This document shows, piece by piece, positions 2,878-64,000 of a stretch of DNA of 64,000 bases (the first letter of the stretch is position 1; every line of letters begins with the position of its first letter). The notes under the pieces are model-generated. The model worked only from the letters and a program-made list of their open reading frames with translations, was not told where the DNA came from and ran no database searches. The position numbers and the translations under genes were made by a program. Source of the DNA: Bacilli bacterium (GTDB lineage Bacteria; Bacillota_I; Bacilli_A; RF39; UBA660); NCBI GenBank assembly GCA_051872415.1, contig JBJEDW010000042.1, positions 56,850 to 120,849 of the forward strand. Direction: 5' to 3'.

Positions 2878-3516
2878 TTATACATTTTTCATCTCTTTTT
2901 TTATTTGTTTATAATTTGGAACATATTTTTCTACTAAAGTCCAAAAATCTTTGGAATGATTTGGATGCTTTAAGTGACATAATTCATGATAAATAACGTA
3001 GATTAGATATTTTGGATTTAGTTTTATTAGTTCTAAATTTAAGGTTATGGTTTTATTTGTTATATTACATACTCCCCATTTACCTTTCATTTTTCTTATT
3101 TTTAGAAGTGGTTTATATTTTGCTTCCTTAAAATTTTGAAAACAAGAATTGTAATAGTTTTCAAATACTTCTATAGCGTTTTTTTTGTACCAATTATCAA
3201 TATTTACGTTTTTTCCTATTAAGGCTTTTTCATCTCCAAGAAAAATTTTTCTTTCATTTATGTAGCAAATATCATAAAGTTTTCCTAGGTACTGAAATTT
3301 GTCCTTTTTTTTTGCTAAGACTTCTTCTTTTTGGATAATTACTTTTGAGATATAATCTATGTTACTTTCAACAAATTTTTGTATTTTCTTTTCGCTTATT
3401 TTTAATGGTGCGGTTACTACTATTTTTAAGTCATCTTTTATTCTAAGATACATGTTTTTATTGTTTTTATATATTATTTCTACGTTGTAGATTTTATTAT
3501 TTATTTTTATATTCAT
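2878..3516 (-). CDS. YgjP-like metal-dependent hydrolase (DUF45 / M48 family)
   Basis: HELCHLKHPNHSKDFW motif typical of the YgjP/DUF45 family. Confidence 0.75.
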   Translation of the reverse strand: MNIKINNKIYNVEIIYKNNKNMYLRIKDDLKIVVTAPLKISEKKIQKFVESNIDYISKVIIQKEEVLAKKKDKFQYLGKLYDICYINERKIFLGDEKALIGKNVNIDNWYKKNAIEVFENYYNSCFQNFKEAKYKPLLKIRKMKGKWGVCNITNKTITLNLELIKLNPKYLIYVIYHELCHLKHPNHSKDFWTLVEKYVPNYKQIKKEMKNV

Positions 3517-3528
3517 ATTATTTCCTTT

Positions 3529-4506
3529 TTAAAGCAAATTATCTTGATGACTTTTTTCAAAGTATTCGTAAGCTTTTGTAGTTGCTATTCTTCCTCTTGA
3601 AGTTCTTTTAAGCATTCCTATTTGAATTAGGTAAGGTTCATACATATCTTCAATTGTTGATGTTTCTTCTCCGACTGCTGTTGCTAGTGAATCTATTCCT
3701 ACAGGGCCACCTGAGAATTTTTCAATAATTGCTAGTAGTAATTCTTTATCAGTTTCATCTAGTCCTATTCTATCTATTTTTAATCTATCTAAAGCTTTTT
3801 TTGTTACTTCAAGGTCAATAGTTCCTTTTCCTTCAACTAGGGCAAAGTCTCTTACTCTTCTAAAGAGTTTGTTAGCTATTCTAGGGGTACCTCTGCTTCT
3901 ACTTGCTAGTTCTTTGGCTGCTTCTTCTTCGATTTCTGCTTCTAAAACTTTACTTGTTCTTTTTATAATTTTTGTTAATTCTTCTTCGGTATAATACTGA
4001 AGTTTATTTACTATTCCAAATCTATCTCTTAGTGGTGAAGTTAAATCTCCAGCTTTTGTGGTTGCTCCGACTAAAGTAAATGGAGGCAAATCTATTTTTA
4101 TATTTCTAGTTGAACCTTCACTTCCAATTATTATATCTAGAGTAAAATCTTCCATGGCAGGATAAAGGATTTCTTCGATAAATCTTGGCATACGATGAAT
4201 TTCATCAATAAATAGAACATCTCCAGGCTCTAGCGATGAAAGGACTGCTGCTAAATCACCTGGTTTTTCTATTGATGGACCACTTGCAGTTTTTATATTT
4301 ACTTCAAGTTCATTTGCTATAATGTAGGCCATTGTTGTTTTACCAAGTCCTGGCGGGCCATATAAAAGAACATGATCTAGGCTTTCTCCTCTTATTTTAG
4401 CAGCCTCTATGAAAACTTTCATGTTGTTTTTTACTTCTTTTTGACCAATATATTCTTCAATTAGGGCTGGTCTTATTGCTATTTCTAATTTTTCTTCTTT
4501 TTCCAT
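3529..4506 (-). CDS. ruvB: Holliday junction branch migration ATPase RuvB
   Basis: [12 protein letters not shown] Walker A and full-length RuvB similarity. Confidence 0.95.
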
Positions 4507-8499: not shown

Positions 8500-8573
8500 C
8501 CAATCACCTCTTTTTTTCTTTATGATTATAACAAAAAAAAAGGAAAAAAGCTAGGTCTTTTCCTAAAGTTTAG

Positions 8574-9649: not shown

Positions 9650-10270
9650 TACGATTTTATCATAGTTTTTTCTAAGAAAAAAGACCAATATGGTCTTCCT
9701 ATAAAATGGCTAATCTATAGTTAACTTTACGTCTTAGGTCAAGTTGGATTTCCCTATTTCTTACTTTGCCGTTACCAGCAGAGCAGTTCCCTTTTAAAAG
9801 AAACAGTAGTATGTTACCATAGCTACGACTTGATTACCACTTAGTACGCACTGCAATCCTATAAATTATCACTCTAGGGGTTTTCCCCTCTGACAAGTTT
9901 GGTTACTAATACTCTTTTGCAATTACAGTTTCATATAGCAATAATTATATTTTATTGGCCAGTAAAATATAATTTGATCTATAATCCCCTGTAACCACTC
10001 AAGTCACGCTTTTATAATTATTATTTAATTATAGATTTTGCTCCTTAAATTAAGGTCTTAGTGAAAGAATGGGTCGGAATCATATGCCATTATGAGCGCC
10101 CATAAATTCTAACCTTTTAGTAATCACCCCAAACTGGGCGTATGAAGCAAATACTAAAAGTTTCGCAAATTAGCTTTTTAGTGGATTTTTAGCCCCACCT
10201 TCGTAACTTTTGTCAACTAGAATAATGTACCATTTTTCTAGTGGTTTAAATTATATCACAAATGGATAAA
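9650..10270 (-). ncRNA. Large structured non-coding RNA candidate (OLE-like?)
   Basis: About 620 bp with no ORF on either strand. Locally elevated GC, e.g. gccgttaccagcagagcagttccc and gggtcggaatcatatgccattatgagcgcccat. Positioned exactly upstream of a small membrane-protein gene. Confidence 0.35.
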
Positions 10271-26213: not shown

Positions 26214-26262
26214 AAAAAGGGCAAATGAAAAAGCCTTCGAAACGAAAGCTTAAAGTTTGATT

Positions 26263-27642
26263 CTAGACTGCTCCACATTCAAATATTTCGCTACCCAATG
26301 TCCATTTTGGACCTGTAATTAAGATATCTGAAGTTACTCCAGAACCGCAAAACATGGAATATCCATTTGTTACTTTACTTGTATCCCAAGTGTTTAAATC
26401 TAAATCATATAGTTTATATGTGTTTTGAAACATTTCCCCCATGTATAGTACCTTTGATACATTTAATTTATTGGCATTTATTGTTGTGAGATTCACAAAA
26501 CTATCAAACATATAACTGCTATCAGGATTGGCATATATTGTATCTTTGGTTGTTGCTATATATAAAGTATAATTGGAAGATGTGCCTTCTACCCAAGCGA
26601 TTACACTTCCATCTTGTTCTTCGCTTACATCAAGCACCTTCCCATCAACTGCATTACTTGTATCTATTACACTTTGACTCGTTTTAAATTCTACTATTTT
26701 TATAGAATCATTATAATAACCACCCCCAAATGAATCGTTGATTAGATTTTTGAAACTTCGTCCTATCATTAAAGTGGCATTTGTTTCTTCTTGAGGTATT
26801 TTTACTCCTATTTTAAATTTGTATTCTAACTTTGTATTTTCATCCCAGTTTCCTGCTTCTACATCTTTATCTACCCATACTCTCAGTTTAAATTTATCTG
26901 TTTGTTTGGTATTTGTTTTACTATGTATATTTGTATCATTATATAGTATGTAGTTATCTCCTAAAGAACTTATTTTTGTTGGAGATATTAATACATTTCC
27001 TTCATAATCTTCTAAATATATTTTTACTTCATTATCTTTTAAGAATTGAGAAGAATCTACATTATCTCCATTAAATGTATAATCATATGTTATTGTTTCT
27101 CCGGTATCATTTTGATACCAATCAATTAAATCAGCTTCGTAACCTGCTGTTTCTAAAGAATCAGCGCCATTTTGAGCATCTTCTTCAGACCATCCTATAC
27201 TTATAAAATAATTATAAATTCCTTCTTTATCATGGGCTATTATTGCATTATACAAAGTTGTTGCTTGGTCTGTTGTTACGCTGTACATATTGGCTAACCC
27301 ATTAATCAGCTTATTCTTACTTTCTTCTGATATATTAAAATAACAACTTGGATATGTCTCTTTACTTGGATTTTCTATTTCACTACATTTTGTATATATT
27401 TTTTCTAAGTAAAGACTATATCCTATTTCTAAATTTTTACTTGCTTTTGTTGTTACTGCAAAGTCGAATGTTTCATTTAATGTTTTACCTGTTTCATCAC
27501 TTATTGGAAGAGCATTTTCTATACTTATTATATCTGTATTACTTTCTAATAGTTCTAAAGATACTTCTCCTGTATCTATTTTGTTTGTTTCTCCTAAAAA
27601 GTTATAATTCCACACAGCAAAACTTATGCCTGTACAAAGCAT
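26263..27642 (-). CDS. DUF285 / BspA-type surface protein. Body of a phase-variable gene; the true start lies at 27766 behind a poly-G tract
   Basis: C-terminal YMFDSF..LDLNTWDTSKVTNGYSMF DUF285 repeats. The in-frame leader 27715-27766 encodes MKKLFKSTNKCSS-GGGG, which is cut off by the frameshift. Confidence 0.7.
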   Translation of the reverse strand: MLCTGISFAVWNYNFLGETNKIDTGEVSLELLESNTDIISIENALPISDETGKTLNETFDFAVTTKASKNLEIGYSLYLEKIYTKCSEIENPSKETYPSCYFNISEESKNKLINGLANMYSVTTDQATTLYNAIIAHDKEGIYNYFISIGWSEEDAQNGADSLETAGYEADLIDWYQNDTGETITYDYTFNGDNVDSSQFLKDNEVKIYLEDYEGNVLISPTKISSLGDNYILYNDTNIHSKTNTKQTDKFKLRVWVDKDVEAGNWDENTKLEYKFKIGVKIPQEETNATLMIGRSFKNLINDSFGGGYYNDSIKIVEFKTSQSVIDTSNAVDGKVLDVSEEQDGSVIAWVEGTSSNYTLYIATTKDTIYANPDSSYMFDSFVNLTTINANKLNVSKVLYMGEMFQNTYKLYDLDLNTWDTSKVTNGYSMFCGSGVTSDILITGPKWTLGSEIFECGAV

Positions 27643-27717
27643 AAGTAATATTACTATTAGAGAAATTGTTATTATTTTTCTTTTATTATCCCATTTATTT
27701 ATAGGGTTTTTAGTTAA

Positions 27718-27728
27718 CCCCCCCCCCA
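27718..27728. repeat. Homopolymeric tract C11 (G11 on the coding strand) inside the 5' coding region of the DUF285 gene
   Basis: 11 consecutive C. With 12 (or 9, or 15) the leader MKKLFKSTNKCSSGGGG joins in frame to LTKNPINKWDNKRKIITISLIVILLMLCTG..., giving a signal peptide. Confidence 0.85.
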
Positions 27729-27963
27729 GACGAACATTTGTTTGTACTTTTAAATAGTTTCTTCATAGTTTTTACTCCTTTTTTGTAGAATTTTTTCACT
27801 TAAATTACTCTACTTATTTTCATAACCTAATTATACAGTTTTTAATTTATTTTAACAATACCATTTTTTACTTTTTACACTTTTTTCTATTTAACACAAC
27901 TTAAATAAACACTTTTAACAAAATCACAAACCAAAACCACCATACATATACTAAACTAGATAG

Positions 27964-31204: not shown

Positions 31205-32225
31205 TCAACTAGAAGGTATCTTTAACTGTTGCCCTATTGACAACAAATCACTCGTTAAATTATTATAACTCTTAAGTTCACTTACACTTATTCCATAATT
31301 ATTCGCTATCTTCCACAAACTATCTCCTGATTTTACTATATAAATTGTACTAACACCACCACTTGGTATCTTTAATTGTTGCCCTATTGATAATAAATCA
31401 CTTGTTAAGTTGTTATAACTCTTAAGTTCACTTACACTTATTCCATAATTATTTGCTATTTTCCACAAACTATCTCCTGATTTTACTACATAAACCACCC
31501 CAGTCTCTTCTTCTTTCTCACTCGGAATAAACAAAAGTTGACCTATATTCAAATTATTACTAGTAAGATTATTAGCTTTTTTTAATTCATCCACACCAAT
31601 TCCATAACTAGTGGCAATCTTCCATAAACTATCGCCTTTAACTACCACATAATAATTAGCCCCTGGCAAAGGCGCATATTTAACTCCTGTATAAATTGCT
31701 ATTGCACGTACAACAGCTTCGGCATACTTTAAATAATCTTTTTTTATCCTACTAGCATCATTACTATTATCAACATAACCAAATTCAACCATAACAGTCT
31801 CGTAATCAGGAGTATCTCTTAAAAGAACATAATAATCATTTTGTGTATTCTCTGGATCTCTAAGTTGATAATATTTATTAACAACTCCTCCAGAAGTAGT
31901 AACTTGATCTGCTATCTCTTCAGCAAAATCATCACTATTCCTAAGAGCATAAATAATTTCTAAACCCTCTTCTCCACCTTTATTCAAATGATTAGAAACT
32001 ACTATTACATTTTTATCATTGCCAAAAGCAGAAGTTATAATATTAACCCTTTCTTCATCCGAAATAGTCCTATCAGTACTTCTAGTAATAATATTTTCTA
32101 TTCCCAAATCATCAAGTCTATCTTTAATATAATTAGAAATTAAAAGAGCATAATCTTTTTCTACAATAGCATTACCTTGATTACCAGGATCACTTCCTCC
32201 ATGGCTGGTATCGGATAAACCCAGA
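31205..32225 (-). pseudogene. N-acetylmuramoyl-L-alanine amidase with 3 C-terminal LysM repeats; 5' end (about 10 codons plus promoter) missing
   Basis: Frame is open from TAG at about 32226 with no start. Reads ..SDTSHGGSDPGNQG.. (Amidase_3 zinc-binding region), then 3 LysM repeats. The first ATG (31205..32107 in the ORF track) lies well inside the catalytic domain. Confidence 0.7.
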
Positions 32226-32258
32226 AACTATATTTTTTATTATTTTATAGGTTATACT

Positions 32259-33866
32259 TTATAAATCAAGATTCCACTCTATCTTAATCTCTCTGGTATT
32301 GGTTTCTTTATTTAATGCACCAACATATATTTTTTCTATAAATTCATCCACAATTATTCTAGTTAGTTTTTTAATATGTTTATACTTTTTAAGTATGCTT
32401 TCAATGTCTTTAGAGTTTTCTTTTCTCTCTTTTGTTTCATCAAGTTGTTTTTCTATTTCTTCTAGTCTTAATTGATATGATTCAACATCCTTTGTATATT
32501 CATCTCTTAACATTGAAAAATCACTATCGGATATTACACCTTTCAACTTATCTGTATAAAGATTTTTAAAATATAATTTGCTTTCATTTATCTTCTTTTC
32601 AAGATTTGCTTTTTCCTTATTTAAATTAGTAATTAAAATATCTTGTTTATTTTCTCTTTCTAATGTTGCGTTATATTCATCTTCAAGTAATTTCTTATTA
32701 CACTTTTTTAATAATTCATTTATAGCATCAAGTACATAATTTTCAATAATATCATATCTTATTGATCTATTATTATCACAAGTATGATATTTTTTACTAC
32801 CTTTGCATTGTAGATATGCTCTTTTTTGCATAACTCCATCAGCACATTTAATATTGCATTGATTTCTCATAAAGATTCTTCCACATTCAGCACAATATAC
32901 TTTACTGCTTAATATATGTACTTTACCATCTTCTTTTGCTGGTCTATGATGATTCTTTAATCTTTTTTGAACTAAATACCATGTTTCATTATCAATGATT
33001 GCCTCATGAGCATTTTCTGTGACGCTCCATTCTGATTTAGGAACTTTTTTTGACTTATGATTTTTATAACTAATATTTGTTCTTTTACCTTGTACTAATG
33101 TACCATTATAAGTTTCATTTCGTAGCATTCTTGCTATTGTATCTGATGTCCATATTCCAGTTGTATCATAATCAAAATTGCAACATACGAAATTACTTCC
33201 AATAGATTTTTTATAAAGAGATGGACATAATATTTTTCTTTCATTTAGACTAGCACATATTCTATGATAACCAAGTCCATTTTTATATTTTTCAAATATC
33301 TCTCTAACAATGGGGGCAACATTTTCATCAATAATAAGTTTATGCTTATCATTAGGGTCTTTCATATAGCCATAAGGTGCAAAACTCCCCATAAATAAAC
33401 CATCATCTCTTTTATTTTTCAACGATTTCTTAACATTGTTAGATAAATCCTCTAAATACCACTCATTAACAAGTCCATTAATTTGTCTTGATTTCTTGTT
33501 AGCCTCATTGTTAGTATCAGCATTATCAACTATACTTACAAATCTAACTCCCCATTCAACAAACTTGTTATGTAGATATTTCTCTATTACTTCCATATCT
33601 CTTGAAAATCTACTTTGTGTTTTACATAATACAATATTTATTCTTCCATTTTCACAATCATTAATTAATCTATTAAAATCTGGTCTTTCAACTCCTGCTC
33701 CAGAATAATCATCATCTGAATAAATATCTACAATTTCCCAACCTTGATCCAAAGCATATTTTAAAAGCATACTCTTTTGATTAGTGATTGACTCACTATC
33801 ATCATTTTTATTTTTCTTATATCTATCCTCATCCGATAGTCTGCAATATACACCTACCTTTTCCAT
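32259..33866 (-). CDS. Large serine recombinase (resolvase N-terminal domain, recombinase and zinc-ribbon domains)
   Basis: MEKVGVYCRLSDEDR catalytic Ser motif. 535 aa with a Cys-rich C-terminal domain. Its stop lies 33 bp from the truncated amidase. Confidence 0.9.
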   Translation of the reverse strand: MEKVGVYCRLSDEDRYKKNKNDDSESITNQKSMLLKYALDQGWEIVDIYSDDDYSGAGVERPDFNRLINDCENGRINIVLCKTQSRFSRDMEVIEKYLHNKFVEWGVRFVSIVDNADTNNEANKKSRQINGLVNEWYLEDLSNNVKKSLKNKRDDGLFMGSFAPYGYMKDPNDKHKLIIDENVAPIVREIFEKYKNGLGYHRICASLNERKILCPSLYKKSIGSNFVCCNFDYDTTGIWTSDTIARMLRNETYNGTLVQGKRTNISYKNHKSKKVPKSEWSVTENAHEAIIDNETWYLVQKRLKNHHRPAKEDGKVHILSSKVYCAECGRIFMRNQCNIKCADGVMQKRAYLQCKGSKKYHTCDNNRSIRYDIIENYVLDAINELLKKCNKKLLEDEYNATLERENKQDILITNLNKEKANLEKKINESKLYFKNLYTDKLKGVISDSDFSMLRDEYTKDVESYQLRLEEIEKQLDETKERKENSKDIESILKKYKHIKKLTRIIVDEFIEKIYVGALNKETNTREIKIEWNLDL

Positions 33867-62596: not shown

Positions 62597-64000
62597 TATC
62601 TTGCACTTCCTTTTCTAAGATCTTCAACATAATCTTCTGATAAAGCTGAATCTACAAAATCATCACGTCCATCTATAGAAAATTTTTCTTTTGCAAAATC
62701 TTCAAACTTCTTATCATATCCATTTGCTTTAGCAATCATAAATTGTTCATATATTGTTTTATCTCTTTTTTCTCTTAATTCTAATACTTTTATCACTTGA
62801 ACCTGAGACGGATATTTTCCTTTCATATACTCTAAATAAGATCCCTTGTATCCTTTTACCTTTTCTCTCATATAATCTGGATAATGCAAATTTAATCTAA
62901 TATCTGGATTTTTATCTTTTTCAGTCAAATAATCATTTGTCATATCATTTACTTCATCTTCAATAGTAATAACTTTTGATTCCTGATTATTAACTACTGG
63001 ATTTTCTAAAACTTCATTTTGCACCATTTTAGAATGATTAACATCCTCAGCAGAATCCTGATTTAAAATTTCCGTTTTTTCCTTATCAAATTCTCCTTTT
63101 TCATTTTTTGCATCTTCTATAATAACATTTTCTTCTTTGCCATTAGTTTCCTTTTTATTTTTTTCATAATCTATTTTACCAATTTCGTTAATCAACTTTA
63201 TTTTTTCTTTCCTTTGTTCTTCTACAATCTTATCTAATCCATTAAGTGTTTTACTGAAATCTATATTATATATTTCATTTAAAATCTTTTTTAAACTTTC
63301 TATAGCTAAACAATTATTCTCTATACTATCTATTCTAATTTCCATATTTCGAGCATTTGAATTAATTTCTTCAGCAGACATAATTTCTTTATTTTTAAAC
63401 GAAGATTCTAATTTTTCACCAGTATTTGACCACATCAAAATACTTTTCTCTTCATACAATTTAACTATTGATTGCATTAAATTTTCTACTGAAGTAGAAC
63501 CAAATTGTCTATATCCCAAACCAAGATTATCTTCTTTATATTGATACATATCTATATGTGCTTTATTAAAACCTAAACTCTTTAATTGTTTTAAACATTC
63601 ATTTATCTTCTTTTCAAAATGTTGATTCTGTTTTTGAGATTCTTTTCTTAAATCTTCTGAAATAAGTTTATGAACTTCTCTAGCAGTTTCCTTATCAAAC
63701 TTTCCTAATTCATCTGCTATCTCTGATAAATCATGCCCTGCTAATTCAAAATTGTGCTTATCTGAATAAGTTTTACATATATTACAAATATCACTTGCTA
63801 CTTGCATATCTCTTTTTGCAGATTGAAATTCCTTTAGTTTATTAGTGTTTATTCTTTTCTCTATTAAACCTTTCGAATCTTGCAATTTTTCCTTTAACCT
63901 ATCAACTCTACTATTATATAGTGCTGTTTTTTTTTTAAGATACTTATCTAAAGAGAAAAAAGCCTCATCAAGTTTCTTTTGATTTTCAACATACGCATAA
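62596..64000 (-). CDS. Hypothetical large acidic coiled-coil protein; 5' end beyond the window
   Basis: Frame stays open upstream of the annotated TTG (63885) to the window edge: ..YAYVENQKKLDEAFFSLDKYLKKKTALYNSRVDRLKEKLQDSKG... Confidence 0.45.
   Translation of the reverse strand, partial: YAYVENQKKLDEAFFSLDKYLKKKTALYNSRVDRLKEKLQDSKGLIEKRINTNKLKEFQSAKRDMQVASDICNICKTYSDKHNFELAGHDLSEIADELGKFDKETAREVHKLISEDLRKESQKQNQHFEKKINECLKQLKSLGFNKAHIDMYQYKEDNLGLGYRQFGSTSVENLMQSIVKLYEEKSILMWSNTGEKLESSFKNKEIMSAEEINSNARNMEIRIDSIENNCLAIESLKKILNEIYNIDFSKTLNGLDKIVEEQRKEKIKLINEIGKIDYEKNKKETNGKEENVIIEDAKNEKGEFDKEKTEILNQDSAEDVNHSKMVQNEVLENPVVNNQESKVITIEDEVNDMTNDYLTEKDKNPDIRLNLHYPDYMREKVKGYKGSYLEYMKGKYPSQVQVIKVLELREKRDKTIYEQFMIAKANGYDKKFEDFAKEKFSIDGRDDFVDSALSEDYVEDLRKGSAR

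Follow-up and report, generated by a model that had tools for sequence, protein, structure and literature searches.

In Mycoplasma agalactiae, the P48-like gene (MAGa1620) carries a poly-G10 tract (+/-1) in its 5′ coding sequence that sets whether a signal peptide is present, and in Mycoplasma bovis, P68 occurs as G8-G10 alleles that give the full-length protein only with G9 (PMC2824730). A similar arrangement was found in a 64,000-nucleotide (nt) stretch of contig JBJEDW010000042.1 from a Bacilli bacterium (hereafter the window), where a run of 10 G residues puts a minus-strand gene for a putative DUF285 surface protein (nt 26263-27766) out of frame. We regard this locus as very probably a simple-sequence-repeat contingency switch operated by slipped-strand mispairing, with the two Mycoplasma genes as the closest precedent by analogy. 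As in those genes, the genome is low in GC, a surface-protein gene has 8-10 G residues (+/-1) near the 5′ end of its coding sequence, the number of which determines whether the open reading frame (ORF) takes in the start codon and signal peptide, and the annotated ORF is a truncated, leaderless version. However, P48-like and P68 are single-gene lipoproteins of wall-less Mollicutes, whereas here there is no lipobox, a whole paralogous family is concerned, and the host has genes for a cell wall: an amidase-LysM gene lies in the window, and homologous loci include genes for MurD and a D-Ala-D-Ala carboxypeptidase.

The mechanism is a textbook one. In the opa genes of Neisseria, CTCTT repeats are located in the signal-peptide coding region of a surface-protein family whose copies switch independently and whose mature proteins are unaffected; the repeat unit there is a pentanucleotide, in contrast to the homopolymer found here, the opa host is a Gram-negative pathogen, and the folds are unrelated. 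Haemophilus influenzae lic1 and lic2 are tetranucleotide switches with alternative start codons. As in lic1 and lic2, three states are possible at the present locus, which has a second ATG in another frame upstream of the repeat that may be used in the same way. The present case stands apart in its host, in the architecture of the protein, and in having a single tract-bearing leader in front of several architectures; literature searches found no description of the leader-bearing family or of the Bacilli lineage. To our knowledge, slipped-strand phasomes have hardly been described in Gram-positive lineages resembling gut commensals.

Poly-G/C phasomes are also found in Campylobacter and Helicobacter, in whose AT-rich genomes phase-variable genes are reported to be recognizable by rare G/C runs of at least about 8 (PMC6321876, PMC2823697). 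These genera belong to another phylum, and their targets are mainly glycosyltransferases, restriction-modification and flagellar genes and not a single shared-leader family. In the M. mycoides cluster, large families of surface proteins contain DUF285 (PMC10634449); in Mollicutes, one lipoprotein of the DUF285 family is frameshifted in some strains relative to others at a poly-A run (A6/A7), and the 5′ untranslated regions of the spma genes possess poly-G tracts (PMC2824730). The family described below resembles these DUF285 ("drp") surface lipoproteins, known from M. agalactiae, M. feriruminatoris and the M. mycoides cluster (PMC2824730, PMC10634449), in being multicopy and scattered and in having C-terminal DUF285 repeats. 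The protein of the window differs from them in a single short DUF285 stretch that passes the Pfam cut-off, a large N-terminal beta-sandwich plus helical module that has no Pfam match, and a tract that is poly-G and situated in the signal-peptide n-region.

Tract anatomy and reading frames

On the minus strand, the 5′ end of the gene reads AAGGAGTAAAAACT ATG AAG AAA CTA TTT AAA AGT ACA AAC AAA TGT TCG TCT G10 TTAACTAAAAACCC. The original prediction, made from the sequence of the window, had placed the start at the ATG at 27766 behind a GGAG ribosome-binding site (RBS), followed by 13 codons and a G homopolymer, and each of these points agreed with the sequence (ATG at 27766-27764, GGAG at 27778-27775). 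The tract length did not: instead of the predicted G11 at 27718-27728, a script counted G10 at 27718-27727, base 27728 being the T of the TCT codon and outside the tract. The tract begins at codon 14, a position at which a change in length would switch expression. From the ATG at 27766, the G10 frame reads MKKLFKSTNKCSSGGGVN and, as predicted, runs into TAA, closing after 18 codons. The second frame, LTKNPINKWDNKRKIITISLIVILLMLCTG..., stays open over 500 codons, from 27762 down to the stop codon at 26263, and, again as had been stated, runs straight into the annotated 459-amino-acid (aa) ORF. Computed repairs of the frame were G9 (-1), giving a product of 500 aa, and G12 (+2), giving one of 501 aa; the restoring effect claimed for 12 Gs was therefore correct, but not the claim that one extra G suffices, since G11 (+1) produces GGT TAA, an immediate stop. 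The stops at G10 and G11 fall 1-3 codons past the tract, the sequence TTAACTAA following the run so that both wrong frames are closed.

The run is of a hypermutable kind and longer than base composition predicts. The GC content of the window is 26.5%, G10 is its sole G/C run of at least 6 within 64 kb, the next longest being 5, and shuffles that preserved dinucleotides gave an expectation of 0.03 G runs of at least 8 per window. The tract was therefore judged to be far above chance. The features of the gene are as follows, in the direction of transcription:

27830-27858, minus strand: promoter-like site TTGTTA-17 nt-TATAAT, with the top sigma-70-like score in the region (10/12 positions; a consensus match only)
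27775-27778, minus strand: RBS GGAG (within AAGGAGT), 8 nt 5′ of the ATG
27728-27766, minus strand: start codon ATG and first 13 codons, MKKLFKSTNKCSS; intact homologues begin MKKLF..NKCSS(G)n..LTK
27735-27737, minus strand: internal ATG (within AAC AAA TGT), in the body frame at G8 or G11, lacking an RBS
27718-27727, minus strand: poly-G tract G10 (C10 on the plus strand)
27710-27712, minus strand: premature TAA closing the 18-codon ORF at G10
26263-27717, minus strand: gene body of 484 codons plus stop, intact, in the frame of G9/G12; includes the 459-aa ORF (P0001) at 26263-27642
27616-27717, minus strand: rest of the predicted signal peptide, with basic n-region LTKNPINKWDNKRK and hydrophobic segment IITISLIVILLMLCTGISFA; a helix in the AlphaFold2 model, residues conserved family-wide
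26347-26517, minus strand: DUF285 repeat region (PF03382), by Pfam match
26231-26251, minus strand: terminator-like hairpin plus T-run, 12 nt past the stop codon

The sole lesion in this set is the phase of the tract, the promoter-like site, RBS, start codon, terminator and 484-codon body all being intact. The body shared 70-74% identity with full-length homologues over 97-100% of its length, and the layout AGGAGT-N-ACT-ATG was kept in 15/15 homologous loci. Because a terminator-like hairpin follows the stop codon, the gene looks monocistronic. The annotated start Met at 27642 lies inside the hydrophobic signal-peptide segment and has no RBS, and the residues before it (LTK..KRK..hydrophobic segment) are conserved among full-length homologues; the length of 459 aa therefore arises from truncation by the ORF caller. 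The annotation is thereby corrected: what is recorded as a 459-aa "BspA family" ORF lacks its leader and belongs to a longer, phase-OFF gene that encodes about 500 aa. In homologues with G11, gene callers start at the internal ATG, giving "MFVWGGG..." (P0019/L004, P0126/L022), and from the reading frame it is conceivable that translation also begins at this codon (27737-27735).

Tract length in relatives

The repaired protein, used as a query, matched 211 relatives. Many were about 500 aa in length and began MKKLF..NKCSSGG(G)LELTK..., others had been called from an out-of-frame ATG (MFVWGGG..., MTVQTNVRLGGG...), and further ones had been cut back to the internal Met at which P0001 starts. The leader, including the G-run, also headed proteins of 650-850 aa with different C-termini (P0029, P0032, P0033, P0035, P0039, P0046, P0051 and P0052). 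At the DNA level, 15 leader-bearing loci had tracts of G6 to G11, four in frame and 11 out of frame, with the tract at the same codon position across paralogues and metagenome-assembled genomes (MAGs); in all 15, the post-tract sequence closed either wrong frame within a few codons. The neighbourhoods of these loci included:

MurD - DUF6512 - gene - rubrerythrin
ProRS - gene - D-Ala-D-Ala carboxypeptidase
gene - PPDK

Since the gene neighbourhoods differ, the loci are dispersed paralogues. A scan of representative genomes yielded 10 loci in 3 MAGs, the window's own genome not being among them, and a scan of JGI metagenomes with the pattern of leader plus G6 gave 0 matches. According to accession numbers and product names, members with the tract number at least five in the MAG to which the window belongs, and their states are mixed: P0039 and P0052 are in frame, whereas P0001, P0003 and P0050 are not. 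P0056, from the same MAG, is without the tract. P0003 is encoded on the same 126.7-kb contig as P0001, outside the window, which contains only one family member.

Length polymorphism on otherwise identical or nearly identical sequence was observed in two sets of homologous contigs. At the PPDK-adjacent locus, three contigs from different ENA assemblies carried G9 (L021, ON), G10 (L024, OFF) and G11 (L022), with 0 mismatches in 2,975 nt (75 upstream and 2,900 downstream of the tract); two others, L020 (G9) and L025 (G10), were 1-2 positions off these three. In the second set, the tract was G7 in L019 and G10 in L023, with flanks nearly 100% identical across 7.4 kb, and the remaining differences formed a mosaic concentrated in the central (helical-insert) part of the gene (alignment columns about 3000-4000).

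Protein clusters displayed the same variation. In nine clusters at 90% identity that carry the G-run, 38 distinct members were in frame, 14 in an alternative frame and 24 truncated, whereas in a control cluster with an interrupted run (…NKSSSEGSD…, SSSEGSD) 9/9 were in frame (Fisher's exact test, p = 0.0037). Identical bodies (100% over 450-650 aa) recurred across call types in the sets P0124/P0126/P0123, P0131/P0134/P0133, P0141/P0143/P0147, P0168/P0171/P0169 and P0184/P0185/P0195/P0193.

Some protein bodies were found to be the same and to have different leaders (P0011 versus P0141, P0012 versus P0155). Together with the L019/L023 mosaic, the sequences of these pairs suggest recombination or gene conversion among paralogues; alternatively, different leaders and mosaics may come from chimeric metagenome assembly at the shared leader. 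At the PPDK locus of one contig set, a 396-aa HTH_38 gene, a candidate transposase, is situated directly upstream (L020, 255-1445, minus strand). Similarity between the contig sets (L020 versus L023) begins only about 60 nt before the tract, and it therefore appears that an insertion or rearrangement replaced the upstream region, altering the first codons (KKQ versus TNL).

In a rabbit-gut Bacilli MAG (CANQJD), two distant members of the family (28-32% identity) showed a conserved element, TTGTCAACATAGAGTAAACAATGGGGGGGGTTACTAACTAA, with a G8 run (L011 2280-2330; L014 88-130), located 180 nt (L011) and 109 nt (L014) 5′ of the start codons. The element resembles the leader of the window, ...AACAAATG...G10 TTAACTAA, and to judge from its sequence may be the remnant of a leader, encode a mini-ORF (MGGVTN*) or act as a switch close to the promoter.

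Switch model and alternatives

The anatomy of the tract, its reading frames, the intact signals and gene body, the occurrence of the tract throughout the family and the length polymorphism at a homologous locus all support a switch. The slipped-strand switch in the 5′ coding region that had been proposed is strongly supported by G9/G10/G11 at the homologous locus and by the frames within clusters, after correction of the tract count and of the direction of repair. From these observations we infer reversibility, a rate of switching, an effect at the protein level, a surface location of the product, and a benefit in immune, phage or niche evasion.

By this model, slipped-strand mispairing in replication would alter the length of the tract. 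With G(3n), for example G9 or G12, the RBS-proximal ATG would be in frame and the full pre-protein of about 500 aa would be produced and exported (ON). With G(3n+1), such as the G10 of the assembly, only the 18-residue peptide would be made (OFF). With G(3n+2), that is G8 or G11, the main frame would stop and only the internal ATG would be in frame, a state that is probably off or very weak. The poly-G is predicted to lie within the n-region of an unusually long signal peptide, and because the tract would be part of the cleaved leader, gain or loss of Gly residues should leave the mature protein unaffected. With one leader shared by dispersed paralogues that have different C-terminal domains, each cell lineage may display a stochastic subset of surface proteins.

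Several points weigh against a switch at this locus. The original prediction had named uniform length in related strains as a sign of a fixed pseudogene; lengths at the homologous locus did differ, but for the allele of the window no second copy was present in the collections searched, P0001 being a singleton whose next match is 74% identical, and no record came up when P0001, P0003 and FeoA were looked up as exact proteins. Logan contigs with proteins identical to the window neighbours, found via the Crp-family regulator and FeoB (SRR30616767, SRR30616778; L015, L016 ends and L017 1-60 from SRR30616767), stop short, either within the gene or 24 nt before the tract is reached, and are therefore uninformative on its length. 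All comparisons were made on consensus assemblies, in which homopolymer errors or the choice among mixed reads could yield part of the polymorphism. The excess of out-of-frame tracts (11/15 at the DNA level) is also consistent with frequent inactivation.

An error of sequencing or assembly, by which the true tract would be G9 or G12, the gene ON and the frameshift an artefact of the MAG consensus, is an unlikely explanation. G/C homopolymers of about 10 are prone to errors, the data are a metagenome consensus, and the breaks of the Logan contigs occur near the region in question. These breaks are likely due to graph branching at the leader, which is repeated among paralogues, and short-read MAGs will often fragment at leader-bearing genes. 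The window itself is densely coding with long open frames, about 79% of it lying in open stretches of at least 150 codons, and shows no sign of general homopolymer indel errors, since no frameshifted genes occur elsewhere in it despite many A/T runs of 7-10. Within the family, about half of the members bearing the run are out of frame and none of those without it. Moreover, L022 and L024, which differ as G11 versus G10 on identical flanks, are both k141-named contigs of separate ENA assemblies, and a difference in pipeline is therefore an improbable cause. Even a wrong count here would still leave the tract a hypermutable switch.

A fixed pseudogene, that is, a one-off indel in a fortuitous G-run of a decaying gene that no longer switches, is quite improbable. 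It would fit a gene that is out of frame in this assembly, as many family members are in theirs, and the lack of variation at its own locus. Set against this, the tract phase is the only defect in 484 codons that have stayed open at a GC content where stops arise easily, and the promoter-like site, RBS and terminator have stayed intact with them. Also against it, the tract is retained at one codon position across paralogues and MAGs, G9, G10 and G11 occur on identical backgrounds, and interrupted-run alleles are all in frame.

RNA polymerase can slip on long homopolymers, and tRNA-Gly can re-pair at GGG codons. A bypass of this sort, in which transcriptional slippage or +1 ribosomal frameshifting would give constitutive, possibly low amounts of full protein from unchanged DNA, is highly improbable as the explanation even though "riboshifting" was raised as an alternative for the P48-like gene (PMC2824730), because no slow codon or stop occupies the A site at the shift point, no downstream structure was noticed (none was searched for), and length differences in the DNA between otherwise identical loci suffice for ON/OFF states, so that bypass could add leakiness beside a DNA switch and not replace it.

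Beyond the slipped-strand switch at this one locus, a more speculative and rather doubtful extension is that the RBS, MKKLF..NKC, poly-G, long signal peptide and beta-sandwich N-domain form a portable "phase-variable leader cassette" that is exchanged between paralogues, with two-start ON/weak/OFF states and gene conversion together giving combinatorial surface variation. The leader heads at least three or four C-terminal architectures, including the DUF285 type of about 500 aa and the proteins of 650-850 aa with other repeats. If true, such a cassette system would be a counterpart of Mycoplasma or Neisseria surface variation in a Gram-positive lineage resembling gut commensals.

The findings indicate that an uncultured AT-rich lineage of Bacilli, represented by metagenomes only, possesses a poly-G phasome over a surface-protein family. 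The resulting heterogeneity would bear on strain tracking, on interactions with host, phage and immunity, and on how MAG "pseudogenes" are read. As a recipe, N-terminal length variation inside a 90%-identity cluster flags candidate repeat-driven switches in metagenomic protein catalogues.

Protein product and other elements of the window

DUF285 (PF03382) matched residues 417-473 of the 500-aa product in Pfam with 34.1 bits against a cut-off of 25, and homologues are already annotated with the same family. Of the "DUF285/BspA-type" description given in the original prediction, the first half therefore stands; the BspA-type label comes from the NCBI product name ([quoted passage not shown] for P0001) and a weak fold similarity only, and no BspA-type leucine-rich repeat family of Pfam was among the matches with E up to 1. 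The sole NCBIfam match was the TIGR02167 PARCEL repeat (24.1 bits, under the cut-off of 30).

An AlphaFold2 model of 484 residues, built with 37 homologues (mean pLDDT 76.7), showed an N-terminal membrane helix (residues 11-45), a beta-sandwich split into two parts (about 46-106 and 231-306) by an insert of five helices (131-205) and, towards the C-terminus, a repeat region. Foldseek against PDB gave no significant match, and a profile search of PDB sequences nothing relevant; the N-terminal sandwich had a weak TasA-like match, and no Pfam or NCBIfam family matched the N-domain. By the -3/-1 rule, the signal peptide is likely cleaved after SFA. A lipoprotein was considered and rejected, there being no lipobox (LLMLCTG, with Leu at -1) and the Cys being replaced in many homologues (MLTIG). 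The best description of the product is a secreted, presumably surface-located protein with a C-terminal DUF285 repeat and an unclassified N-domain; the adhesin role suggested in the original prediction is hypothetical.

In the window, the gene is situated in the order NrdD - Crp-family regulator - gene - FeoAB. A functional tie to these neighbours was dropped, as the homologues sit in unrelated neighbourhoods. The longest A/T homopolymers of the window, T10 at 63927-63936, T9 at 3305-3313 and A9 at 8533-8541, are possible internal controls for stutter.

A large serine recombinase is encoded at 32262-33866 on the minus strand (Resolvase, Recombinase, Zn_ribbon_recom and DUF4368 domains), adjoining the amidase-LysM gene at 31208-32227, and may mark a mobile or developmentally excised element. 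OLE (ornate, large, extremophilic) RNAs are large structured non-coding RNAs typical of anaerobic or extremophilic Firmicutes. A full-length OLE RNA was identified at 9690-10249 on the minus strand (Rfam RF01071, 317 bits, model positions 1-616).

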